The translations under genes and the position numbers were made by a program. This document shows, one piece after another, positions 5,167 through 34,664 of a stretch of 39,645 nucleotides of DNA (its first letter is position 1; every line of letters starts with the position of its first letter). This DNA is from a virus: the IMG/VR virus record IMGVR_UViG_3300045988_067475, positions 1 through 39,645 of that record. One strand, 5' to 3'. The notes under the pieces are model-generated. The model worked only from the letters and a program-made list of their open reading frames with translations, had not been told where the DNA came from and ran no database searches.

Positions 5167-6546
5167 CTAGAAATTCAGGTAGCTGCTGTCCGCTTCCCCT
5201 CCGGTCATGTAATCGCCGTAGCTTTCTTCGTGCTCTTCTTCGTCTGCAATGACCTGCTGTTCCGGCTTGAGCGTCCGAAGCTGCGCGTAATACCGCAGCG
5301 CATCCGGCGCGTGGGTTATATCGTGCGGTTCATTGGCACAGTCCGACGGGTTCTTGTCGTCGTGCTGAATCGCCATCAGATCGTCGATAATCCCCTTGCA
5401 GGTGTTGAAAACCAGAAGCCCCGGCTTTCCATCTGCCATGGGCTTTAGCAGTTCCTTAACTGCCATCCAGCCCGCCACACGGGAATTATTCGCTTTGACA
5501 ACCGGAAGTCCGCTTTCTGCGAACAGCTGTGCCATTGTCTTGCCAGTGTCCTTTAATGTCGACCACATATCCGGCGGCGCAATCGTATACTCTACTCGTT
5601 CGCCCGGCGGCGTCGACACAATCGCTGCATTCGCCGCCTGCGAAACAATCAGCCTCGATTCGTTGTACTCCCGGTACAGATACGCCCTTCCGTTATAGTC
5701 CACGGCAATCCAGAGGCACGCGAACATATCGAGGCCGTAGTCGAATGCCCGGTATTTCGTCCAGCCTGTTGGAATTGCAAACGGCTGAATGACATGCGTC
5801 TTGATTGTAAACTCCGGGAAGTACCCGCCGGACAGTGCATCCCAGTCACCAAACCGGTGTGCCCTTCTGACATCCTCCGGCAGCAGATTCAATGCGTTTA
5901 CATAATTCGGAGATCCTTTCAGCAGATCGACGTTATCATCGACCGTCGCTTTCAGAAACAGATAATCGTCCGGATTCTCTTCCGGCAGAAAATCTCTTGT
6001 GACAAAGATTCTCTTCACCCACTGGTGCCCGACGCCGCCGGGGTTACATGTCAGATACACTCGTTTCGGGAAAGGCGTTGCACCACGGCAGCATGCCGCG
6101 ATACCGCGAAATTCCTGTTCGGTGAACTGCGTCGCCTCTTCAATGAAAATCCAGTCGTATTCCTGGCCCTGATACTTGCCCGTAACCGCCGAGCCGTACC
6201 CGTCCATGTTGCCGAATTTGATGCTGGACCCATTCACAAACGTCAGAAGATGCTTTTGCACGTTGTATGTAGCAAGACCGTCCGGAATCAATTTCAGAAT
6301 CGGGTCTATGACGGAGTTTTCCAGATGTTCATATCTCCGTCTGATAACCAGAACCCGAAGCCCCGGATACTCAATGCACCCGCCGACCGGTTTTCTCTGC
6401 GTACACCACGACTTTCCGCCGCCTCTCGCGCCGCCGTAGCACGTGTATTTCACCCGGCTTTCAAAGAACCGCCTCTGCGGCTCGCTGTTCGGGCAGCCAA
6501 GATTCAGCGTGATCGCTCCGCCCTTTGCTGTTTGCTTTCTCGCCAT
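5167..6546 (-). CDS. terL: Terminase large subunit (459 aa)
   Basis: Walker A is YGGARGGGKS and Walker B is YDWIFIEEA. It has a TCNPGG coupling motif and a C-terminal RNase-H-like nuclease region (FDYGLDMFACLWIAVDYNGRAYLY). GGAGGG RBS. Confidence 0.95.
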   Translation of the reverse strand: MARKQTAKGGAITLNLGCPNSEPQRRFFESRVKYTCYGGARGGGKSWCTQRKPVGGCIEYPGLRVLVIRRRYEHLENSVIDPILKLIPDGLATYNVQKHLLTFVNGSSIKFGNMDGYGSAVTGKYQGQEYDWIFIEEATQFTEQEFRGIAACCRGATPFPKRVYLTCNPGGVGHQWVKRIFVTRDFLPEENPDDYLFLKATVDDNVDLLKGSPNYVNALNLLPEDVRRAHRFGDWDALSGGYFPEFTIKTHVIQPFAIPTGWTKYRAFDYGLDMFACLWIAVDYNGRAYLYREYNESRLIVSQAANAAIVSTPPGERVEYTIAPPDMWSTLKDTGKTMAQLFAESGLPVVKANNSRVAGWMAVKELLKPMADGKPGLLVFNTCKGIIDDLMAIQHDDKNPSDCANEPHDITHAPDALRYYAQLRTLKPEQQVIADEEEHEESYGDYMTGGEADSSYLNF

Positions 6547-7093
6547 AGCGCCCTCCGCCCGTGCTCACCTTGACGCCCGGATTGCTCCGGGACGCCAAAG
6601 TAAGGAGGATTGAAACGTTGGCTCGCCGCCAAGGTCAACACGGGATTTTTGAAAAATTTGAGATTCGATTTGTGCAAAGGGGTACGCCGTTTTTCTCCCA
6701 CCCCTCCCAATGAATGGGAAAAGGTCTAGAAGCGAATCCATGGGGGAGCTGGATATAACTATACATACAGGAGACCGCGCCCCCTGTTTTTCCGCTACCC
6801 CCTCCCATTGCCTGGGCTTTGGTGAGAAGCATACCCGGAACAGTGCCCCCGTCTGCGCGCCCTCAGAAAAAACGCGCGGGGGCTTATTGGCTCCGCAGCA
6901 GGGGCTAATAGCCAGCACGCGCACACGCACCAGCAGCGCCCCATCTCTCCGGCATTATGCCGAAAGATAGTAGACCATAATCTATTTATGTCTACTCATA
7001 AGCGAATAGTTGTGCGAACTACATAAAACTCGGAGCCCCCCATAACTATTTGCGAAAAACGAACGCAGCAAAATGGATATTTGGTGGCGTTGA
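6547..7093 (-). ncRNA. 547-nt untranslated, GC-rich, helix-dense spacer between terS and terL; candidate structured RNA and/or packaging (pac) region
   Basis: No ORF here has a credible RBS. A duplicated module lies at 6689-6718 and 6786-6816. Stable hairpins lie at 6846-6882 and 6576-6591; the latter has a GCAA tetraloop only in minus sense. A long-range pairing 7031-7040/6878-6895 competes with the 6846-6882 hairpin. Confidence 0.35.
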
Positions 7094-7468
7094 CTACTTG
7101 AAAGCCGTTTTTGAGCCTCCAAACTCGATATTTATAGTAAGCTCGCCCGAGCATTTGCCGTCGTCCGCCTTATCGATCATCTTACAGCCGTCGAAGTCCT
7201 GCTTATTGGCAAAGATGCTCTTTGACGAGTTCGGGCCGGACCAGCCCGGAGCCGTGTTGTACTGCCCGCGAATCCAGGTAGCAAACTTTTTTAGCTCGCG
7301 CGCCACGTCCATTTTATTGGCCGGCGGATTTTTGATCGCCTTTGACACGCTCTCGGCGTCCATGCCGATTGTGCCGCAGAAATGCCACCAATCGGCCTTT
7401 GGGTACTCCCCTGTCTCGACCTTATGTTTGTAATCGTTGATCGCCGCTACTGTCTGCTTGTAGCTCAA
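7094..7468 (-). CDS. terS: Putative terminase small subunit (124 aa from TTG 7468; the track ORF extends to 7501)
   Basis: It is the first gene of the late operon, upstream of terL. A GGGGAGGTGA RBS lies 7 nt before TTG 7468. The HTH-like segment PKADWWHFCGTIGMDAESVSKAI and its size fit the GP3-package type of small terminase. Confidence 0.55.
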   Translation of the reverse strand: MSYKQTVAAINDYKHKVETGEYPKADWWHFCGTIGMDAESVSKAIKNPPANKMDVARELKKFATWIRGQYNTAPGWSGPNSSKSIFANKQDFDGCKMIDKADDGKCSGELTINIEFGGSKTAFK

Positions 7469-7542
7469 TGGATCGTCACCTCCCCGAACATTTCGCAGCA
7501 AAAGCCAGTCTTAAAAAATCTTCGATGCGTGGAGATTCAAAC

Positions 7543-7574
7543 GGGAAATTCGGAAACGAAGTTTCCGATTTCCC
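7543..7574 (-). promoter_or_regulatory. Long hairpin (14 bp, one bulge, GAA loop) in the leader upstream of terS
   Basis: GGGAAATTCGGAAAC (7543-7557) pairs with GTTTCCGATTTCCC (7561-7574). In minus sense it is followed by GUUUGAAUC. Confidence 0.4.
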
Positions 7575-7906
7575 TTATTGAATCTCCCCAGATGTATATA
7601 TATCACAGATTTTTTGACCACCAATAAAAAGCCGTTTATTGCTTCTTAAAAATATTGATTTTTTCGGGCAAAAAAGCGTTGGAAATGCAGGAAAAACCGT
7701 GATTTGAAAAAATTTTATAAAATAGTGGGCGTAGGGTCTTGACAAAAATAATCAGAATTTTCCAGCTGTGAAATCAGGCTGCGCACGGGCGTAATCGAGC
7801 CGCCGCATCTGGCCTTGTCCGTTATGCAGCATTTTGAGCACACTATAATACAATCCGCACAAATACATTGCAAAAAATGCCCTCGAAAAAAATTTTTGAA
7901 AAAGGC

Positions 7907-7935
7907 TTGACATATACGGTTTGCCCGTATATAAT
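7907..7935 (+). promoter_or_regulatory. Consensus sigma-70-type promoter for the plus-strand accessory island
   Basis: TTGACA (7907-7912), a 17-nt spacer, then TATAAT (7930-7935). It sits about 57 nt upstream of ATG 7992. Confidence 0.7.
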
Positions 7936-7991
7936 AAGGCCATACAGCAAAACAAAAAACAAACCCCAACACGGGGCAGGAGGAAACGAAA

Positions 7992-8261
7992 ATGAAGGTT
8001 ACTATTTACGAGAACTACGGAATGCTTGCAGCTGAAAAGCGCTGCATCTACACCACGGCCGAAACCGACGCCACCGTCTCCGAGCCGCTTGACGTCATCA
8101 TCCCCGAGAAATTCGCCCCGGCGAAAAACGCTGCTGACGAGATCGTCGTCACGCTGAACGGTTACAATTATCGCTTGCAGGATGTCCTGTGCGGCGACGA
8201 ACAGCCCTGCATCATGGTCCCGGGGTACACCACCAGATACGAGCGGCTTGCTCGTGCCTAA
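7992..8261 (+). CDS. Hypothetical small acidic protein (89 aa)
   Basis: Track ORF with an AGGAGGAA RBS. It is the first gene behind the consensus promoter. Confidence 0.65.
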   Translation: MKVTIYENYGMLAAEKRCIYTTAETDATVSEPLDVIIPEKFAPAKNAADEIVVTLNGYNYRLQDVLCGDEQPCIMVPGYTTRYERLARA

Positions 8262-8281
8262 GTCAAAGCGAGGGAATCCAA

Positions 8282-8761
8282 ATGCCAACTGATGCACAGA
8301 AACGCGCCCGCAACAAGTGGGACGCGGAGAACCGCACCGTGATCGGGTGCAAGATGCGGCGAGAAGACGCGGAAGCGTTTAAAGCCGCCGCGCAGGAAGA
8401 CGGAACAAACCCCAACGAGCTCTTGCGCGGCTGGATCGGGGACTACATGAGCAGGGAGGAATCAGACATGACGAATGACCAAATTCAGGCGCTCGCTGTG
8501 ATCTTTGCGATCTGCCGCAAGGCGACAAAGACGCAGAGCCAGAGCGACATTGACAACGCGCAGCGTTACCCCATCAAATGGGCGACCATTATGGTGCGCA
8601 AGCTCCACGCGATGGGCAAGGCAACGGACGATATCGACCGCGCAATCGCCGAGCAGTACGGAAAAATCGACATCGACACGTTTACGGCCAACTTTGACAA
8701 ATGCCTAACGCTCGAGCAGCAAGGCGTTTGGAGCCTTGCATTTTATAAGGCAATGCAATAA
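8282..8761 (+). CDS. Ribbon-helix-helix (Arc/CopG-like) N-terminal domain protein (159 aa)
   Basis: Internal ATG 8282 follows GAGGGA. MPTDAQKRARNKWDAENRTVIGCKMRREDAEAFKAAAQEDGTNPNELLRGWI matches the RHH pattern seen again in the protein at 9358..9546. Confidence 0.55.
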   Translation: MPTDAQKRARNKWDAENRTVIGCKMRREDAEAFKAAAQEDGTNPNELLRGWIGDYMSREESDMTNDQIQALAVIFAICRKATKTQSQSDIDNAQRYPIKWATIMVRKLHAMGKATDDIDRAIAEQYGKIDIDTFTANFDKCLTLEQQGVWSLAFYKAMQ

Positions 8762-9227: not shown

Positions 9228-9374
9228 TTAGTCTTCCAGTGTCTTTTGCAGGTTGTCCACGATCTCTGCAAGCTTTGCTTCCTTCTTCTTCGGGTCTTTC
9301 TCTGCGATATAGTCTTTCAGCATCGCGAGCAGGAACCGAACCCAGCTTTGAAACTGCTTATCTGTCATTCCCAT
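9228..9374 (-). CDS. Hypothetical small protein (48 aa), below the ORF-track size cutoff
   Basis: My translation is MGMTDKQFQSWVRFLLAMLKDYIAEKDPKKKEAKLAEIVDNLQKTLED. An AAGGAGGGA RBS lies 10 nt upstream. It overlaps the end of the RHH gene. Confidence 0.5.
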   Translation of the reverse strand: MGMTDKQFQSWVRFLLAMLKDYIAEKDPKKKEAKLAEIVDNLQKTLED

Positions 9375-9546
9375 TTTCAATGTCCCTCCTTACTGCATTT
9401 AATATGAACGTCTGGACGCTCTGCCCTGCGCGGGCGGCTGCGTCTCTGATCTTCTGCCCTTCTTCCTTCTCGGGGCGAATCATGATATTGTCCCGGCTGG
9501 CATTCCATTTAGCCGAGGCTCTTTTATGCGCGTCGCTGACTGCCAT
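9358..9546 (-). CDS. Ribbon-helix-helix (Arc/CopG-like) DNA-binding protein (62 aa)
   Basis: ATG 9546 follows GAGGTGA. The sequence is MAVSDAHKRASAKWNASRDNIMIRPEKEEGQKIRDAAARAGQSVQTFILNAVRRDI. It sits next to divergent promoters that carry repeats. Confidence 0.6.
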   Translation of the reverse strand: MAVSDAHKRASAKWNASRDNIMIRPEKEEGQKIRDAAARAGQSVQTFILNAVRRDIENGNDR

Positions 9547-9568
9547 TGCGTCACCTCGCTTCACTTTG

Positions 9569-9675
9569 ATTGTACACCCTCTCCGTCTAACCGTCAACGT
9601 ATAAAATTCACCAGAAATAACCGTTAACTTTTGTGCAACCTGCCTCTTGACGGAATAACCGTTAACGTGTATGAT
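9569..9675. promoter_or_regulatory. Divergent promoter pair with direct-repeat operator candidates
   Basis: Minus-strand promoter: TTGACG (9597-9592), 17 nt, TACAAT (9574-9569). Plus-strand promoter: TTGACG (9647-9652), 17 nt, TATGAT (9670-9675). The 13-bp repeat AATAACCGTTAAC occurs at 9616-9628 and 9654-9666, with a degenerate copy TCTAACCGTCAAC at 9586-9598. Confidence 0.6.
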
Positions 9676-9724
9676 TGAGCCATCAAAACGAAACGAAAAC
9701 GGCACCGCCGAGGAGGAACACACC

Positions 9725-10378
9725 ATGAAAATCATCAACACATCTGAAACCTTCCGCATCATCGACCTGATGAACCAGTATGACGATCTCTATTTTGAAG
9801 ATCTGAACATCTGCGCGCACCCCTACCGCAGCAGCCTTGTCATCATCGACCTGACAAACGGCATGAAGACCGGCAAGACCTGCACGCGCTGGCTGTTCTC
9901 AGTCAGCCCGTGGAAGATGAACGCTGACCGCCTTTGCCTGACCGAATATGTCGAGATGGCCGCGCCGGAATGTGACACACTCTGTGAGCTGGTCGCGTGG
10001 CTCAGAGCCGAAAAACCTTTGCACGAAGTCGACGGCCTGACCTTTGAGACAGGCGCGCAGCCGAGCAACCGGACGTTCAGCCCCTTTTCCGTAGTCAAGC
10101 CGGTTAAGCTTGGGGAGCGTCTGAACGCGTCGACGGTCGCGAAGGCCATCCGCGTCGGGCAGATTGTCGCAGGCCGCACCGATGGCCGCTATACGGACGA
10201 TTACGCCGCCGATGCCGCTTATGACTTCTACCGTGGGGACATTGATTTACAAGCTTTCGCGCAGGACATCTTCGAGCACCCGAGCGGCTGGCGTTTCTGG
10301 TGGCGCGACGAAAGCCGAACCGAGATCACCGCCGCCTGTCATACCTTCGATTATAAAACCCTTACTGTGGCGGTCTGA
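9725..10378 (+). CDS. Hypothetical protein (217 aa)
   Basis: ATG 9725 follows GAGGAGGAA. It is a single-gene unit between the repeat-bearing promoter and a strong hairpin terminator. Confidence 0.65.
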   Translation: MKIINTSETFRIIDLMNQYDDLYFEDLNICAHPYRSSLVIIDLTNGMKTGKTCTRWLFSVSPWKMNADRLCLTEYVEMAAPECDTLCELVAWLRAEKPLHEVDGLTFETGAQPSNRTFSPFSVVKPVKLGERLNASTVAKAIRVGQIVAGRTDGRYTDDYAADAAYDFYRGDIDLQAFAQDIFEHPSGWRFWWRDESRTEITAACHTFDYKTLTVAV

Positions 10379-27341: not shown

Positions 27342-30300
27342 TTACCCGGCCATTCGGACGGGGATTTTTGTCCCGTTCTTCTCCGCGATGATCTCCCCGC
27401 GAACCAGTTTCCAAGTCCACCCGTCCGGCGCGCCCCACGTCTTCATGACGCCGTTCTGCATCATCTTATACGCAAGCTGCCCCGCCTTCGAGCCGACCGT
27501 GTATCCCTCGCCCGGCTCGTCGTCAAAGCCGTTTCTTCCGAGGACGGCCCGCGCCCGAAGCTGCCGCCCGTCCTTTGTCCGGACGATCACGTCTCCATTT
27601 TCTCCGACCGACCATACAGACCCGTCCTTCGCTTCATACCGGTCTTTCCGCTTGAGAAGCAGGCTCAGATACTCCCGGTATCCATCGTCCGTCCGGATGT
27701 CGTAGGTTTCCTCCTGTGGCTCTTGCTCTGCGGAGGATACCCCATCCCAGCCGACGTTCTTCTGGATTTTCTTCCTCGTGCTCTCTGCGTAATCCTGAAC
27801 GCTGACGGCAATCGCGTATTTCTGCTCCGCTGTCATGTCCGTTTGGTTGAGATAATCGCAGAACCAAGCCCATTTCGTTCCGAAGCCCTGTGACTTCCGC
27901 TCGTCGGCATTCGGTGCTTCCTTGAACTGCGCCCATGCGTCGATGTAGTCGGCCATTGCCGCGCCCGTGTCCATGACGCTGTGCGTCCATCCGGTCTGCG
28001 CTCTCGCCGAAAGCTCGCTCTTCGCCGCCGCGACGCTGATATTGCCCTCCCGGAGCTCCGAGGAAAGATACCGGAGGTTCTTCACCGAGTCCGCGTAGAA
28101 CCCGGCGCGTACTGCGTCCTTCTGGTCTTCCGTCCAGTCCCGGCGCTCGAGCCAGGAATCAAACTGATCTTCCGCGCTGCGCACAACGTTTCCGTCCATG
28201 TCGTAGACCGTTTCGATGTTCTTGAGCGCCGCCTTTGCTTCCTGATACATGGCTTCCGTGGCTCCTGCCGCCATGCCGAACCGCTCGTAGGCCTTCTGCG
28301 CCTGACTCTTTTTCTCTGCATCGCTGCTCCATCCGCTGAAAGTTCCGCCGCCAGTCCCGCTGGAAGCGTAGCTGCCGGAACTGGAAGTGGCACTTCCGGT
28401 CGACGTGACCGCTGTACCGCCGGGGTTTCCACCGTCTGTAGCGGGCGCAACATACGCCGCGCCAAGCTTGTTTGCGATTTTCTTCTTGGTCTTCTCAGAC
28501 ATGGAGCGGTCTGTGCTGATCGCGATCGCGTACTTCTGTTCTTTGGTCAGTTCCGTGTTCTTGTTCAGCTCATTGCAGAACCATTCCCACTTGCTGTCAA
28601 AGCCCATCTTGTCGCGTTCTTCCGCTGTCGGCGCGTTCTCAAACGTCGCCATGCTGGAAATGTAATCGCGCATCTGAACGCCGGTGCTGCTGACATTGTG
28701 CGTCCATCCGTACTGGTATGTGGGGGATAGTGCTTGCTTCGCCTCTCCGACGGTAATGTTTCCGATGTCAAGGTCTTCCACAAGTTTGTTATAGGTATCT
28801 ACCGTATCCCCGTAGAAGCCCATGCGAAGCGCCTTTTTCTGTTCTTCGGTCAGATTCTTCGAATCCAGCCAATCGTCATACTGATTCTGTACGCTACTGG
28901 TCACAATGCCGTCAATGTCTTTGACTTCGTGCATTCTCGCGTGCGCGCTGGACGCTTCCAGCATCATCTGCGGCGTAACGCCTGCGGCCTTTCCGAACTT
29001 CTGATACGCATCGACTTCCCGGGCAGACAGAACCGCAATTGCTGTCCGGTCGTTCAGCTCATTGTCGTTGTATGCCTGCAAAAGCTCGTCCCGGTTCGTG
29101 CCGTCTTTATTCGCATCCTTGTATTTGGCCTTGACTGCCTCGTCGAGGAAATACTCTGCAAGCGTCTTCTGGTTTTTCCCTTCAAGCTTCTGCTGCTCTT
29201 CGGAAAGTTTGTATCCAAATTTCGCCTTTTCCGCATTCTGGAAATACTCTGCCGCCTTTTCCCGCGCAGATTCTTTCAGATCGTCGGATACCCCTGCATA
29301 CGCAAGCGAATCATAGATCTTCTGCACGTTCCCAAGCTTGTTTTTCGCTTCGTCGCTGATGTACTTTTCACTCTCAACGGCTCGCCCGAGAATCGCGTTC
29401 ACGATCTCCTCGTCGGATTTCCCCTTTAGTCCGTTGATCCATTTCTCATCGCTTTCATAGCCAACGCCCGCCGCTTCTTTTCCAAGCGCGTTCGCGTACT
29501 CCTGCGAAAGACTCATTGCCTTAGACTTTACATTATCCGGAAGCCCCTTGTAGATATCGCTATCCAACATATTCTTCCGGAGATTATAGTCCGTCTGGCC
29601 TCTCGTTTCTGTATAGTTTGCGTATTGTTCAGAGGTCAGTTTGACATTCTCCCCATCTACGGCAATGCTCTTCGGCGGCTTCGTATAGAAGTTGGAGTAT
29701 TCCGCGTTCACATCATGCAGCCGCGCGATTTCTTCTTCGACTGCATCTGTCTTTTGCTTGGAAGGATATACCGGCGTGACCGCTTTGAAAACGCCCTCGC
29801 CAAAGCCGTTTGCTCCGTTTCCTTCGACCGGAACGCCCCAGTTTCCGTAGGTAACGGCCATATCCTCCCGAAGCCCCGGGAGCTTCTTCTGTACACCCTG
29901 TACGGCAGACTGCACCGGACTCCAAGCGCCGTCCGGTTCCAGATACGTACTTCTCTGGTTCTTGTCAAGACTGGCCGCTACACGCCCCACGATCGTCGGC
30001 ACGTACTGCCCGACATAGTTTCCGATAATCTGTACGCCCATCTTGGTCAGTAGCTCGCCGGTTCCCGCGTTGTCGGAATTCTGAATCGTCGTCAGGATGC
30101 TGTCCATGCCGCTGAGCATCGACTGCTCAAACACCGGGTCTGTGATCTTGGACAGCGCATCGAGAAAATCTTCAAACGAGATCGGTTCGTCACCGTTTCG
30201 CGCGTTCTGCGCCGCCTCCCAGATTTGCGCGCCCGTCAATAGCCCTGTCCCGGCCAGCGTCAGGCTGTCAATGGGAATATACGTATCTCCAACCAGAATG

Positions 30301-33300
30301 GAGAAATCTTTCGCGCCAAAGGCGTTCTTCTGCTGCTCTTTTTCCTTGTCGTCGCCGACGCCCGTCGCCCGAAGGATTCCCTGCTTGGCCAGCATCGCGC
30401 CGACGCCGAGAAGCGCCGTCCCAGTGGTTGCCGCCGCAAAATCATCAATTGCTTTGGCCGCCGTGATATCCGGATTCCCTTTCTGCATCTGAATGAGATC
30501 CCATGCCCCTTTCAGATACCCGAGCGGCGAATATTCCACCGTCCGAACCATAACGTTTGCCGGGACCTTCTTGAATGGATAGACCGTGCTGGACAAGAAC
30601 CGTCCGAGTTTGCTTCCCTTTCCAAGAGATGTCGCCCACTTGGATACGGCGTTCAGGTCGTTATACGTGCCCTTCTTCGCTTCGGTCATTGCGTAGGTTC
30701 TAGCCGCGTCTGTGATTTCCGTAAGCCCATTGGCTTTCATATACCCGGCCAGCGCCACAGAATACATAGGCTTCGAGAACCACATATCTTCCACTTCCAG
30801 CGCCTTGCTGTTCAGGTTGTTCGCCTTTTCCGCGATATTCAAAGCCTTGTCAATTCCGCGTGTCAAAGCGTTCTGCGGGTCGTTGATCTTCCAGTACCGG
30901 CGCTTGTCATTGATGTCACCCGCCGTGTTGGAGTACTTCCCCGTGCTGTCTTCATAAAGATCGACTGCGTTGTCGTAGTCCGCCCAGCCCAGATTCAGAA
31001 GATTCTGGTCTGCCTTATTCAGCGGATTTAAGAATGCTTTCGTTCGGCCTTCTTTGTTCCCGATGAAAACAGTTTCCATGAGCGCCGCAAGGTTATCCTT
31101 GCCGATCTTTGCAACTGCGCCGGAGACGTTACCCATGATGTTCTTTGCATGTGTCGAAGGGTTCGCCAGCATCGAGAAATACCGCCACTGCTGCGCCGCT
31201 TCGCCGAGAGATGTCGGAATCTGGTCTGCAACATTTTGATAAATGTTCTGCAAAGCGGCTTCCTGCGCGTCTGCCGTCGCGGCGTTCTGATACGTCTGCA
31301 AAAGCGCATCCGGAACATTGATCTCGATCTGCTTGTTCGCGGCTCTTCTCTGGTTGATCTGCGCTTCCAGATTGGAGACCATCTTCTGCACCGTGAAGAT
31401 TCTGCCCTCCGGCGTTAAGGACTTCATGAGTCTTGCCGCCTGCACCGTCTGACCGGCGTTTGTCTCAACCGCCGTCAGTGCAACCAGAATGTCGGACGCT
31501 GCGTTGTAGTCCCCTTCCGCGATAGCGTCTGCATACAGTGTCGTACCCTGAGAAACGAATTTTGCCCCGGCCTTTCCTGCGTTTGCGTCGCGAATGAACT
31601 CTCCGCGGATTTGCTCGATGCTCTTGCCTCTGGCATACTGCTTTTCAATCTGCTTTGCGCCGTCCTCAATCGCCTGCTTGTTACCGTAGACCTCATGACT
31701 GAGCTTTCCATCCTGCACCAGCTGCTCAATTCTTCCGACCATCTCGTCTGTCGTGATCTGCGCCTCTGCCGCTGTCCGGGAGAACCTGCTGACTTTTGTT
31801 TCTCCGTCCATAGAAGCGGGGATATCCACCACACGCGAAGGATTCTCGCCGGGAGGAATCGCGCCGTACTGGTTGCTCGCATGGCTCAAGGGGTCAAATC
31901 CGGCAGGCGCCGCGCCGGGCGCTTCGATCTGTGCTGCTTCCGTGCCTGCCGGAGACGCACCCTGCCGCTCTGCATGCCACGTGCGTTCTTCTGTTCCTGT
32001 CTCCGCATTTGCGGCGAGGCTAGTATCTACCGGCTTGGGCGCGTTCTGCTCGTCTTCCGTCTCCATCAGCCATGTAAGCGCTGATGTTTCTGATTTTTGC
32101 CGCATATCCGCGCCGGGAATCTGCTGCTTCGCACGGATATACGCCTCGTTTGGTGGAACGAATGTACCCGCCTCGCTTTTCGGTGTCATTGCATCGTACC
32201 CATTTGTGAGCATATCATCGAGCAAAAATTCCACGCGCCGAGCATCGGCGTAGTTTTCTGCGCCCTCATCTTTAATGATGTTCTCCGCAGCTTTTGCAAG
32301 ATTATCCCACGTAATGCCAAAGCGGTCTTTGAGTTCGGCAATACCTTTTGTCGTGCGTCTCTTTGTTCCTGTCCAGTGATAGTATCCGCCGTTATCTCCA
32401 TTTTCTGTTGGCGTGGCGAAACGTTCACCTTTGGTCGAATCTGCAATATCCTCCAAGAGAAGTTCCGCTGCTTCCTTCATGTACTCATGGAGTTCCGGAT
32501 TGTCATACTGGAACGAATGTCCGCCTCGCTGCATTCTCTCGCTGATATCATGGTTGTCTATATGGTTGGCCGGATCGACTTTGTAAATGCCGCCGCCTGC
32601 ATCATATTTGTACTGTGTTTTTCCAGTCTCAATATCGTTAAGGAACGCATTTAAGGCAGCCGCGTCTTCACCCTGCAACGAGTTACCGTAGTCCACCCAC
32701 TGATTGAAAGACAGTTTTCCTTTGTTTTTTTCTATCAGTTTATCAAAATCACCCTTGATTTTCTCAGAAGCAGCATTTATATTAGAGGTGCCGGCTTCCG
32801 CTGCATTCGACCTTACAGGCCCGTTCATCGGCGACTCTGTTGTTTGTTCGAATGTGGCGGAATTTTTATTTTGGTTCATAGCCGCCAGAATCGCATTATC
32901 CAGCGCCGTCGCTTCTCTTGTCTGCGTCACATTCTCCGGCGTCTGCACGCCCTGCAACGCATCGAGAATTGCCTGATCGAGCGGGCTTGCTGTCGGGTCG
33001 ACAATGCGGTTTCGCGCATTGATTGCCTCCTGCGCCAGCATCTGCCCGCCGCCAAGAATGCCGCCGATTGCTGCGCCCATTCCGAATTCCTTCAACGATT
33101 GGTCGAAATTGAAGACTGCATCTTCGTTTTTGCCCGTGTCGTCGTTCCACGGCGCATCCTGATTGTAGACAGCTTTGTTTACAAGGCGCTCAATCATGCC
33201 CTGCACGACTTCTTCCTTGCCTTCATCCAGAGACGAAGAAACCCATTTCCGGATTTTCTCCGCGCTGGTAAGCCCTTCTTTTCTCAGTTCGCCCGGCAAC

Positions 33301-34664
33301 TGCTCGACGCCTCCGCCGACCTCGACAATCGCGTTTGCCGTCGAGGAAAGAAGCGTTGCCAGAAGCGCTTCGTCCTCCGTCGCGCCCTTTTCGATTGCTT
33401 CGTCATACGAATTGCCGAAGCTCTGAACGAAGCTTGTCCAGTACATGGGGTCTTTGGAGAGCTTCTGCACCGCGTCCGCTACCGTCGCCGTCAGCCCCGA
33501 AGCCTCCGGGGCGAGCGTCGCCGCTGCCGAGCCGCCCGCCGTTGCCATTGCAAGAACTGCGTTCGGGACTGCCGAAATCGTGCCCTGAATCAGCTGATTT
33601 GCAAGGTTGCCGCCTTTCCCATACTGATTCCATCCCGTAGCCGCCTTCTGCGCGAACTGCGCCGTCGTGTCCTTCGTGCTCTGGTTCAAATCAGATACCG
33701 GTTGAAGGAGAGAACCAAAAAACGGCGCATCGCCCTTCACAAACTTACCGCTTTCCTTGTCCCAGCCGCCGTTTGCAAAAGCTTCCAGCTGCATTAGAAC
33801 ATTTTTACCCGCATTCAGTGTGCTGGTAACGCCGGAGTTAAACTGCCCTGCGCCCGCTTCCAGTGCGTTATAGATAGAATCCAAAACGCCGTAGTCGCCC
33901 GTCACGTCCTTTTTCTTCTGAATCAGTTTGCTTCGCTCTTCAGTCAGCGCCTCTTTGGTCTTCCCGCTTTTCTCGCCGACTACAGGGTAGCGGCCTTCAA
34001 TTTTGTTCTTGAGCGGCGCAAGTTCGCTGTCGATAGCCGCGATCTGCTTGTTAAGCTCAGATACAGTCCGGTTGTACCCCTTTTCCTGATCTCGGTTAAC
34101 CGTCCTTTGTGTTCTGATGCGCTGCTGCTCATCCGCTCTCGCCTCGCTCGGGCTCTTCCCGCTGGAAATGGCTCGTTCAAGCTTTTGATTGACCGTATTG
34201 CGGAAATCCTGTGCCTGCTTCGTGTTCTGGCCAACCAGATACCCGTTCTTCGTCGCCTGCTCCACAAGCGTCTGCTTCCGCTTTGCCTCCGTGTCGGAGA
34301 TCTTCCGGTTGGCAGAGCTCTGAAACGAAAGCCCGTAGGTTCTCGAGCTGCCGATCGTTGCCCTGTCCATCAGGTCGCTGAGCGCTTTGGATTTTTCCGC
34401 CGCGCTCAGTGATTTTTTCTTGCTGGAGGAACTGGAAGAAGACGAAGAAGAGTTGCTTGTCGAGCTTTCCGTCGGCTTGGGTGTTGTAAGTGAACCGCTT
34501 GTGCTGGAAGAAGGCGTCGTTTTCGGCGTGCTTGCGGAGGCGCTTGGAATCGACTTTGGCGCGCCGCCCTTGTTTCCCGTGCCGGTATTTTTCTTCGCGC
34601 TCGGCTTGATGCTGTCGTACTGCTTCTGCGCCTTCAAGTTGCGTTCGCCGTCTTTTGTAATCAT
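27342..34664 (-). CDS. Giant virion-associated protein (2440 aa), putative internal/ejection or polyvalent protein
   Basis: A single uninterrupted track ORF with ATGA coupling to the upstream gene. It has a Ser-rich N-terminus, a Gly/Ala-rich hydrophobic patch (AVPNAVLAMATAGGSAAATLA) and two tandem repeats of about 190 aa near the C-terminus. No catalytic motif was recognised. Confidence 0.6.
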   Translation of the reverse strand: MITKDGERNLKAQKQYDSIKPSAKKNTGTGNKGGAPKSIPSASASTPKTTPSSSTSGSLTTPKPTESSTSNSSSSSSSSSSKKKSLSAAEKSKALSDLMDRATIGSSRTYGLSFQSSANRKISDTEAKRKQTLVEQATKNGYLVGQNTKQAQDFRNTVNQKLERAISSGKSPSEARADEQQRIRTQRTVNRDQEKGYNRTVSELNKQIAAIDSELAPLKNKIEGRYPVVGEKSGKTKEALTEERSKLIQKKKDVTGDYGVLDSIYNALEAGAGQFNSGVTSTLNAGKNVLMQLEAFANGGWDKESGKFVKGDAPFFGSLLQPVSDLNQSTKDTTAQFAQKAATGWNQYGKGGNLANQLIQGTISAVPNAVLAMATAGGSAAATLAPEASGLTATVADAVQKLSKDPMYWTSFVQSFGNSYDEAIEKGATEDEALLATLLSSTANAIVEVGGGVEQLPGELRKEGLTSAEKIRKWVSSSLDEGKEEVVQGMIERLVNKAVYNQDAPWNDDTGKNEDAVFNFDQSLKEFGMGAAIGGILGGGQMLAQEAINARNRIVDPTASPLDQAILDALQGVQTPENVTQTREATALDNAILAAMNQNKNSATFEQTTESPMNGPVRSNAAEAGTSNINAASEKIKGDFDKLIEKNKGKLSFNQWVDYGNSLQGEDAAALNAFLNDIETGKTQYKYDAGGGIYKVDPANHIDNHDISERMQRGGHSFQYDNPELHEYMKEAAELLLEDIADSTKGERFATPTENGDNGGYYHWTGTKRRTTKGIAELKDRFGITWDNLAKAAENIIKDEGAENYADARRVEFLLDDMLTNGYDAMTPKSEAGTFVPPNEAYIRAKQQIPGADMRQKSETSALTWLMETEDEQNAPKPVDTSLAANAETGTEERTWHAERQGASPAGTEAAQIEAPGAAPAGFDPLSHASNQYGAIPPGENPSRVVDIPASMDGETKVSRFSRTAAEAQITTDEMVGRIEQLVQDGKLSHEVYGNKQAIEDGAKQIEKQYARGKSIEQIRGEFIRDANAGKAGAKFVSQGTTLYADAIAEGDYNAASDILVALTAVETNAGQTVQAARLMKSLTPEGRIFTVQKMVSNLEAQINQRRAANKQIEINVPDALLQTYQNAATADAQEAALQNIYQNVADQIPTSLGEAAQQWRYFSMLANPSTHAKNIMGNVSGAVAKIGKDNLAALMETVFIGNKEGRTKAFLNPLNKADQNLLNLGWADYDNAVDLYEDSTGKYSNTAGDINDKRRYWKINDPQNALTRGIDKALNIAEKANNLNSKALEVEDMWFSKPMYSVALAGYMKANGLTEITDAARTYAMTEAKKGTYNDLNAVSKWATSLGKGSKLGRFLSSTVYPFKKVPANVMVRTVEYSPLGYLKGAWDLIQMQKGNPDITAAKAIDDFAAATTGTALLGVGAMLAKQGILRATGVGDDKEKEQQKNAFGAKDFSILVGDTYIPIDSLTLAGTGLLTGAQIWEAAQNARNGDEPISFEDFLDALSKITDPVFEQSMLSGMDSILTTIQNSDNAGTGELLTKMGVQIIGNYVGQYVPTIVGRVAASLDKNQRSTYLEPDGAWSPVQSAVQGVQKKLPGLREDMAVTYGNWGVPVEGNGANGFGEGVFKAVTPVYPSKQKTDAVEEEIARLHDVNAEYSNFYTKPPKSIAVDGENVKLTSEQYANYTETRGQTDYNLRKNMLDSDIYKGLPDNVKSKAMSLSQEYANALGKEAAGVGYESDEKWINGLKGKSDEEIVNAILGRAVESEKYISDEAKNKLGNVQKIYDSLAYAGVSDDLKESAREKAAEYFQNAEKAKFGYKLSEEQQKLEGKNQKTLAEYFLDEAVKAKYKDANKDGTNRDELLQAYNDNELNDRTAIAVLSAREVDAYQKFGKAAGVTPQMMLEASSAHARMHEVKDIDGIVTSSVQNQYDDWLDSKNLTEEQKKALRMGFYGDTVDTYNKLVEDLDIGNITVGEAKQALSPTYQYGWTHNVSSTGVQMRDYISSMATFENAPTAEERDKMGFDSKWEWFCNELNKNTELTKEQKYAIAISTDRSMSEKTKKKIANKLGAAYVAPATDGGNPGGTAVTSTGSATSSSGSYASSGTGGGTFSGWSSDAEKKSQAQKAYERFGMAAGATEAMYQEAKAALKNIETVYDMDGNVVRSAEDQFDSWLERRDWTEDQKDAVRAGFYADSVKNLRYLSSELREGNISVAAAKSELSARAQTGWTHSVMDTGAAMADYIDAWAQFKEAPNADERKSQGFGTKWAWFCDYLNQTDMTAEQKYAIAVSVQDYAESTRKKIQKNVGWDGVSSAEQEPQEETYDIRTDDGYREYLSLLLKRKDRYEAKDGSVWSVGENGDVIVRTKDGRQLRARAVLGRNGFDDEPGEGYTVGSKAGQLAYKMMQNGVMKTWGAPDGWTWKLVRGEIIAEKNGTKIPVRMAG

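Follow-up and report, generated by a model that had tools for sequence, protein, structure and literature searches.

What does a phage keep in 547 nucleotides (nt) of DNA between its two terminase genes? The question is raised by the virus record IMGVR_UViG_3300045988_067475, whose positions 1 to 39,645 make up the window analysed here. On its minus strand, positions 6547-7093 separate a terS-like gene (7094-7501, with its TAG stop at 7096-7094) from terL, the gene for the large terminase subunit (5167-6546, with its start at 6546). This tract is real, non-coding and conserved, and it is a composite of four parts: in minus sense, a palindromic hairpin with a tail (T1), about 230 nt of lineage-specific hairpins, two 16-nt boxes, and an RNA domain that ends beside terL. 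The reading that we favour, and to which we would give an even chance, is that the spacer is the control region of the late (packaging and morphogenesis) operon, in which box-dependent tandem promoters would be combined with a structured terL leader. On this reading the spacer would act partly as DNA and partly as RNA.

The tract had been flagged in an initial annotation as an untranslated, helix-dense spacer, and its untranslated status is borne out. The sole open reading frame (ORF) that crosses it, at 6565-6930, has a GTG start and would encode 121 amino acids. Its GC content hardly differs between the codon positions (0.58/0.55/0.55, where real genes have about 0.55/0.42/0.66), 1-nt insertions and deletions fall inside it in close relatives, and searches of the Pfam and PHROG families gave no match; for these reasons taken together it is considered non-coding. 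The initial annotation had also raised the possibility that related phages carry a protein-coding gene at this position, such as an HNH endonuclease, of which the tract would be a decayed remnant. No such gene was seen in the relatives, and decay was rejected as an origin: homologous non-coding DNA with frame-breaking insertions and deletions is found in close relatives, in a group with 73% TerL identity, and in locus L008. In relatives with short gaps (L027, L029 and L031), terS directly abuts terL.

Viral relatives were gathered by their TerL proteins, giving 80 loci. The whole spacer is homologous in L001-L007, L028 and L038, with 74-85% nucleotide identity alongside 91-98% protein identity in TerL and terS, and it is homologous end to end also in the 73%-identity group (L009-L025) and in L008. 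Full-length homologues come to about 29 related phage contigs, in which conserved blocks alternate with variable stems. The distribution of the parts was followed with five profile hidden Markov models, one for each segment and searched separately. The 5' region and the 3' domain are each confined to about 29 close loci, and module A, which holds the first of the two boxes, is found in 69. Such modularity, with a lineage-specific 5' region and 3' domain around widespread boxes, speaks for the control-region reading.

In the window, module A occupies 6816-6742 on the minus strand, as do all spacer features given below in descending coordinates. It opens with a hairpin, CCCA-GGCAA-TGGG (6816-6804), which is followed by the 16-nt box A, GGGGTAGCGGAAAAAC (6801-6786), a G-run (6785-6775), a TATA-like box, TATGTATAGTTATAT (6767-6753), and CA with a C-run (6752-6742). 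Module B (6718-6645) likewise begins with a hairpin, CCCA-TTCATT-GGG (6718-6706), and a box, GGGGTGGGAGAAAAAC (box B, 6704-6689); beyond these lie a -35-like TTGCAC (6677-6672) and, after 17 nt, a weak -10-like TTTCAA (6654-6649), with an A/T-rich tail that runs to 6645. The two copies lie 97 nt apart, start to start, and a degenerate 14-mer of the module occurs twice in the window where 0.14 occurrences are expected, so that the duplicated hairpin-and-box module described in the initial annotation is indeed present.

The boxes reach far beyond the immediate relatives of this phage. A 14-mer from the duplicated module was scanned on viral contigs and the first 120 matches were inspected; about half were chance matches in coding DNA, and about 55 showed the extended two-module architecture. 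A stricter gapped pattern recovered 93 stretches in all viral contigs. In its widespread form, module A runs in the order box GGGGTAGCGGAAAAAC, G-run, about 22 nt, TATA-like TATAGGnTATAT, CACA and C-rich run, and module B follows 80-320 nt downstream on the same strand with a second box, a G-run and an A/T-rich tail. All extended-motif loci that show a TerL match have the motif on the same strand, 244-4800 nt upstream of the TerL homologue (41-98% identity), and the box element directly adjoins a terS-like gene, on either side of that gene. A generic host promoter type was considered and rejected, as the pattern is restricted to prophages of the Oscillospiraceae type: among 185,579 species genomes scanned, the true matches to box plus TATA all belong to Oscillospiraceae-type genomes or metagenome-assembled genomes, and the remainder are chance matches. 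The genome matches are prophages in Dysosmobacter, Pseudoflavonifractor, Neopoerus and 'Clostridiales', and wherever TerL fell inside the fetched 8-kb block the motif lay upstream of it. Candidate carriers of a related prophage include Pseudoflavonifractor sp. Marseille-P3106, P. phocaeensis An507 and Neopoerus faecalis CMD_1836.

The box pair thus marks the start of the packaging and structural module in dozens of mosaic phages, which makes it a handle for the annotation of late operons and of module boundaries. The box can be used to seek the regulator or terminase that reads it, and could serve in inducible late-gene reporters for hosts that are hard to study. Oscillospiraceae (Dysosmobacter, Pseudoflavonifractor and their relatives) are abundant anaerobes of the human and animal gut, and their phages are common in gut viromes; to our knowledge, almost no experimental genetics exists for these phages.

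The failure of the initial annotation to place the tract in a known class was repeated on a larger scale. Rfam 15 gave no matches in the whole window at gathering thresholds; the region 6400-7250, with the limit relaxed to E = 10, matched just mir-2 and CRISPR-DR9, both at chance level; and twelve related loci gave only tRNAs at gathering thresholds. ROOL, GOLLD, HEARO and the other Rfam families were accordingly rejected as identities, there being no covariance-model match in the window or in the 12 related loci. A search for cultured relatives gave no DNA match in GenBank phages, and its best TerL match, at 46% identity, came from an unannotated faecal phage contig; no close cultured phage was found. 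In the literature the box sequence turned up just by chance, in papers on other matters, and a topic search on structured RNA, terminase and prophage brought no description of the element. The box pair is, then, a widely conserved element without a match to a curated RNA family or to any paper found.

Repeated boxes beside the terminase genes bring a packaging site to mind, and a pac or terS-binding site was among the options of the initial annotation. The two 16-bp boxes would then be recognition sites for TerS or TerL, flanking an AT-rich region in which the first headful cut is made. The boxes themselves are real and far more widespread than had been noticed, and much of their setting would suit this role. 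The element is never more than a few hundred nt away from a terS-like gene, which it may precede or follow, and it lies upstream of terL; it is restricted to this TerL clade, and the TerL is of the Terminase_3 / Terminase_6N type; there is one box pair per genome, made of two direct repeats in fixed orientation, the first of which is followed by an AT-rich box; and in contigs of 38-40 kb the motif is found at scattered positions, as expected of circularly permuted headful genomes. Phage P1 pac has repeats on both sides of the cut, and the pacL-pacC-pacR site of SPP1 overlaps promoters of the terminase operon. The present element resembles both in its repeated boxes flanking a central region, in its position in or beside the small-terminase gene and in its directionality, and the predicted promoters would be a further likeness to SPP1 pac. 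That said, known pac sites usually change with their TerS, whereas this box hardly varies among phages in which the terS-like proteins have diverged beyond what BLAST can align. The fixed distance of box B from -35 and -10 hexamers, with genes just after, is something that packaging does not need. Contig coordinates give no sign of physical ends, and the short contigs that break near box A, about ten in number, are explained equally well by a mosaic junction. On balance we consider a pac site unlikely.

The short contigs in question begin or end within 160 nt of box A (among them L111, L086, L109, L176, L212, L221, L240, L257 and L134). Upstream of box A, the sequence differs between sub-groups that are near-identical from box A on, the L107 and L138 groups for example. 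These observations suggest that the 5' edge of box A is a mosaic (recombination) junction or an assembly break. Physical ends of the cos type at the element were also entertained; their appearance was an artefact of how the loci were stored, and the true contig positions are scattered.

Whether the conserved core works as DNA or as RNA can be judged from its pattern of variation. Across 44 sequence clusters the box columns carry about 2 bits each, and the A-run and the CA are separated by 38-39 nt in 55 of 81 instances. When every pair of columns was compared in an anchored scan over the same clusters, no stacked covarying pairs emerged in module A. A fixed spacing across a variable, unpaired intervening sequence is as protein-DNA geometry would give. 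An RNA helix around the TATA box of module A had been a candidate and was rejected: cognate arms pair at -12.0 kcal/mol against -10.7 kcal/mol for non-cognate arms, the helix is missing in several families, and it has no strand asymmetry.

Module B, for its part, stands in a promoter-like register. In 29 clusters, the sigma-70-like hexamer pair after box B has a mean score of 8.76 (7.99 in shuffles), with 31% above the 95th percentile, and in 16 of these clusters the -35, typically TTGAAA, starts 12-16 nt past the A-run. In other families a Shine-Dalgarno (SD) sequence with a start codon (L196, L228, L251) or a tRNA-like sequence (L143, L268) begins at most a few tens of nt from the predicted start. 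Judged by these patterns, a promoter with regulator boxes probably fits the core best. This reading was not among the options of the initial annotation, whose interpretation is partly supported.

The sequence after box B also bears on a different proposal, that the spacer gives rise to a cis-acting antitermination RNA. Transcribed boxes and leader would in that case modify RNA polymerase, acting alone or with Nus factors or a phage protein, and would allow read-through of terminators over the late operon of about 20 kb and its tRNA genes. Known RNAs of this kind are lambda nut with its boxA and boxB, HK022 put, and Bacillus EAR; the present element is like them in heading a very long operon as a leader, in having short conserved single-stranded boxes by hairpins, and in the boxA-like string after box B. 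That string resembles GTTCTTTGAAAAC, a spacer motif of Firmicute and Mollicute rrn operons which we take to be boxA, and which is conserved enough to serve as a primer for the mycoplasma 16S-23S spacer. A similar string is found in many families, and the similarity exceeds the 95th percentile of random windows in half of the clusters. L135 and L163 carry CCCUGAAAA strings and two UGAAAAU-loop hairpins with different stems; these lie about 40 nt upstream of box B, with stems GGGAGGG/CCCUCCC and GGCG/CGCC, and are reminiscent of the GAAAA loop of boxB-type hairpins. An intrinsic-terminator-like hairpin follows box B in L109 and L092, and the 3' domain described below is kept in L008 before tRNA genes, where control of translation is unneeded. 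Set against this, the boxA-like string occupies the same bases as the -35 TTGAAA of box B, so that a promoter is the simpler explanation, and the match in the window is weak. No conserved boxB hairpin was found by which a lambda-type nut site could be recognised, the boxA-like similarity being enriched but overlapping the -35. Of the 20 window proteins compared with PHROGs, none is of N-like or Q-like type; Rfam gave no match to the EAR (epsC) family, and no terminator was identified between box B and terL in the window. An antitermination RNA is, in our view, distinctly improbable.

The part of the spacer nearest terL is of another nature: approximately the last 90 nt before the gene are a covariation-supported RNA domain on the sense strand. 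The domain (6644-6558) is closed by a helix, P1, in which 6644-6627 pair with 6575-6558, and is multi-branched. It abuts the terL ribosome-binding site, read from the sequence as GGAGGG at 6556-6551 with ATG at 6546-6544, the SD sequence beginning 1 nt after P1. In an alignment of 20 homologous spacers from three sub-families, P1 consists of 19 pairs, of which 7 have changed on both sides, and its cells are 98% paired; independent folds of the window, L007, L008, L010, L019 and L024, which again represent three sub-families, all gave the same closed multi-branch architecture. One branch, within 6615-6597, presents the anti-SD-like AAUCCUCCUUA. Another element, the GCAA-capped GNRA hairpin at 6591-6576 picked out by the initial annotation, is present and covaries in relatives, with 2 compensatory pairs and a GCGA loop in L008. 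The sense strand of the domain is more stable than the antisense strand by 3-14 kcal/mol because of its G.U pairs, and its folding z-scores run from -1.9 to -2.7. For L003, pairing of AUCCUCC with the SD sequence gives an alternative fold whose energy equals that of the P1 fold.

The domain shows the pattern by which a cis-regulatory leader is recognised, with helices kept by compensatory changes on the coding-sense strand beside a ribosome-binding site. Translational control of terL was the remaining option of the initial annotation, and the predicted leader, with its exposed anti-SD loop, is a concrete case in which control of a terminase gene through translation or mRNA stability could be tested. 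In L008 the domain precedes tRNA genes, which lie between it and terL, and its role is therefore not only translational. A structured leader after box B is found only in the window, L010 and L008 families and in L212. A candidate terL promoter, TTGACC-N18-TTCAAT (6634-6605), was set aside, its bases being the 5' strand of the covarying P1. Within P1 (6627-6644 / 6558-6575), GUGUUG / GAGCAC is invariant in the three sub-families while neighbouring pairs covary, and the invariant pairing holds a G.G mismatch and a U.G wobble; this could be a specific recognition or tertiary motif.

Taken together, the boxes and the leader suggest how a late-operon control region of this kind might work. The boxes would be binding sites of a regulator, phage-encoded or host, that drives two tandem promoters, P_A and P_B. 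P_A would be a promoter lacking a -35, with a TATA-like -10 and then a CA start; P_B would have a -35 of TTGAAA type, and a weak -10 in the window. Transcripts from P_B would start at about 6646-6640 in the window lineage, which would make the multi-branch domain the 5'-terminal leader of the terL mRNA. The exposed CCUCC loop of that leader, beside the GGAGG of the ribosome-binding site, could tune terL translation or mRNA stability. T1 would end, or operate on, a separately promoted terS transcript, and promoter-like sites for terS itself are found in the divergent AT-rich region at 7502-8188.

A candidate for this regulator can be named. Small ribbon-helix-helix-like proteins with a conserved C-terminus, GQSVNAWIIDAIRDKL, are encoded 0.5-1 kb upstream of module A in 16 loci; in L103, L112, L127, L138 and L180, for example, they stand at about -1000 to -500 of box A. 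The two members in the window, at 9358-9762 (minus strand) and 8189-8761 (plus strand), lie 1.4-3 kb upstream of module A. These proteins match NCBIfam YlcI/YnfO below the cut-off, and in a cryptic prophage of E. coli, ylcI likewise lies shortly before a homologue of the small terminase gene. A protein of this type is a possible regulator of the boxes.

A number of points weigh against a control region so conceived. After module A, sigma-70 -35/-10 pairs score no better than in shuffles (means of 7.76 and 7.72) and are scattered in position, and the promoter label there draws on the AT-rich box, the CA and the spacing. The box B hexamers of the window, TTGCAC-N17-TTTCAA, are weak, with a poor -10, and an in-register box B promoter is missing in 13 of the 29 clusters, the large L107 group among them. 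In L109 (minus strand) and L092 (2273-2330), the terminator-like hairpin and a U-run come directly after box B, with no -35/-10. In the window, terS lies upstream of the boxes and would need to be expressed apart from the rest of the late operon, and the compensatory hairpins upstream of box A are not needed by a pure promoter model. Transcription start, regulator and binding are all predicted, and the ribbon-helix-helix proteins are linked to the boxes by co-occurrence.

Among the known arrangements closest in plan is the late control region of lambdoid phages, in which the Q gene is followed by PR', qut, the 6S RNA and tR', with tRNA genes downstream in Stx phages. Like it, the present element is a dedicated non-coding region at the boundary between early or replication genes and late genes, found once per genome and oriented toward the late genes; tRNA genes can follow it, and a promoter would be combined with a transcribed leader. 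Unlike it, the present element comes without any Q homologue that we could find, is unrelated in sequence, and belongs to phages of Oscillospiraceae hosts. It has two direct 16-bp boxes where the lambdoid region has a single Q-binding element, and it lies beside terS and terL, whereas the lambdoid site lies in front of the lysis genes.

The helix-dense character that first drew attention to the spacer holds for the whole of it. The minus strand has a minimum free energy of -226.7 kcal/mol (z of -4.59 against shuffles), and the plus strand a z of -2.33. The consensus structure of the 20 aligned spacers, which was taken from the same alignment and is favoured by it, has 89% of cells paired, 30 pairs changed on both sides and a covariation score of 0.236, against 36-51%, 9-14 and 0.04-0.125, respectively, when partners were slid; covariation in aligned related spacers had been proposed as a check by the initial annotation. 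Not every predicted pairing came through. The pairing of 7031-7040 with 6878-6895, which had been thought to compete with the 10-bp GC hairpin at 6882-6846, exists in the sequence of the window but is absent from the consensus fold of the relatives, so that mutually exclusive folds are not conserved; the GC hairpin itself is present.

At the upstream end, T1 (7091-7052) consists of a 30-nt palindromic hairpin, AACGCCACCAAAT-ATCC-ATTTTGCTGCGTT (7091-7062), and a U-rich tail, CGTTTTTCGC (7061-7052). Its stem of 11 bp has 5 G-C pairs at the base and an A/U-rich upper half. Eight of the 11 pairs are invariant across the 20 spacers, and the arms are thus kept by sequence and not by covariation. Searches with nhmmer found T1 on both strands in 38 loci, distant families included, where it again lies 3' of a terS-like gene. 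A consensus terminator scan made no call on the stem and its tail, CGUUUUUCG. T1 may be a terminator-like element or a protein operator.

Between T1 and the boxes lies the lineage-specific 5' region (7051-6846), about 230 nt of hairpins with homologues in the close loci already mentioned. A promoter scan marked TAGACA-N16-TACTAT at 6994-6967. Downstream of it are the hairpin CGGCA-UAA-UGCCG (6962-6950), whose loop (AUAA) is kept while its stems change, a G.U-rich hairpin (6942-6901) and the GC hairpin named above. Helices 5-11 of this region hold compensatory pairs, such as 230:280 (GC10/CG9) and 232:278 (CG10/UA6).

With so much structure on one strand, the spacer might instead encode one large non-coding RNA of several domains, an 'ornate' RNA like ROOL or GOLLD. 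A single fold would take in the full 450-550 nt or so, or in some relatives 1-1.5 kb of DNA without ORFs; tertiary contacts would be made by the A-rich boxes and the GNRA loop, and the RNA would have a function of its own, apart from the expression of terL. A large structured RNA was another option of the initial annotation, and the part of it that stands is the 3' domain, a real structured RNA on the terL-sense strand. Much of the broader picture is also suggestive: the sense strand of the entire spacer folds more stably than shuffles of it, many helices have compensatory pairs, there are GC-rich helices, a GNRA tetraloop and conserved A-rich single strands, the 3' domain of L008 precedes tRNAs and not terL, and relatives have ORF-free gaps of 0.9-1.5 kb around the boxes. 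A non-coding tract of about 550 nt in Firmicutes phages and prophages, often with adjacent tRNA genes, matches the reported context of ROOL and GOLLD (PMC12286853). There is, however, no single 547-nt unit. The flanking domains are lineage-specific and limited to about 29 loci, the sequence upstream of box A is swapped between sub-groups, and covariation is confined to the 3' domain and some of the lineage-specific hairpins. What is widely conserved is a short box pair, not a shared multi-helix fold, and its core, box A, has no covarying pairs; elsewhere, ORFs or tRNAs come right after box B, and the next 110 nt there are not unusually structured. Rfam has no match to ROOL, GOLLD or another family here even at E up to 10. 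An ornate RNA spanning the spacer accordingly strikes us as a slim prospect.

A looser proposal is that the boxes, together with 0.5-1.5 kb of ORF-free DNA, represent an unrecognised class of phage RNA specific to Oscillospiraceae phages, either ornate or making RNA polymerase resistant to termination across the late operon, with invariant strands GGGGUAGCGGAAAAAC as the functional core. This too we hold to be unlikely; were an RNA reading true, the very few large structured RNAs known from phages would gain a new family.

Structured RNA from this part of a phage genome has been described in staphylococci, where cabRNA is transcribed from phage terminase genes and is sensed by CBASS cyclases (PMC10686824). 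Both are associated with the terS-terL region, but the present element is an intergenic tract and has no sequence relationship to cabRNA.

Two recurrent features of the surroundings deserve mention. Many relatives carry one to four tRNA genes downstream of the boxes, in the same orientation and at a distance of a few hundred nt, as at L008 2580-3000, L107 518-592, L103 7222-7305, L130 2614-3239, L196 2464-3160 (minus strand) and L138 8678-8746 (minus strand); the window has none here. In L138, L127, L180, L103, L112 and L092, the DNA around the boxes is free of ORFs for 0.9-1.5 kb (about -750 to +750 of box A), between the ribbon-helix-helix gene and terS, and stretches of this length are unusual for compact phage genomes.

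The genes that flank the spacer can be named with differing assurance. TerL (459 amino acids) matches Pfam Terminase_3 (1.5e-13) and Terminase_6N, as well as PHROG families of the terminase large subunit. The upstream gene, of 135 amino acids, is the first of the minus-strand packaging and structural operon, and its GC content at third codon positions (0.68) is a real coding signal. It has no direct match in Pfam, PHROG or NCBIfam; its family profile aligns with a family that holds a Pfam GP3_package member (hhalign probability 96.8%, E of 3e-10, 112 columns), and on the strength of this alignment it is reasonably called terS-like.

The window phage is a temperate phage of Oscillospiraceae, with an integrase, Sak4, a primosomal protein, a resolvase and a dUTPase among its genes. 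Upstream of terS, the divergent AT-rich intergenic region at 7502-8188 contains a perfect TTGACA-N17-TATAAT (plus strand, 7907-7935) and a TTGCAA-N17-TATTAT (minus strand, 7873-7845), and probably serves as the switch region that divides terS from the regulatory genes of the plus strand. Far downstream in the structural module, a single ORF of 2440 amino acids occupies 27342-34664 on the minus strand and is presumed to be a tail or tape-measure fusion.

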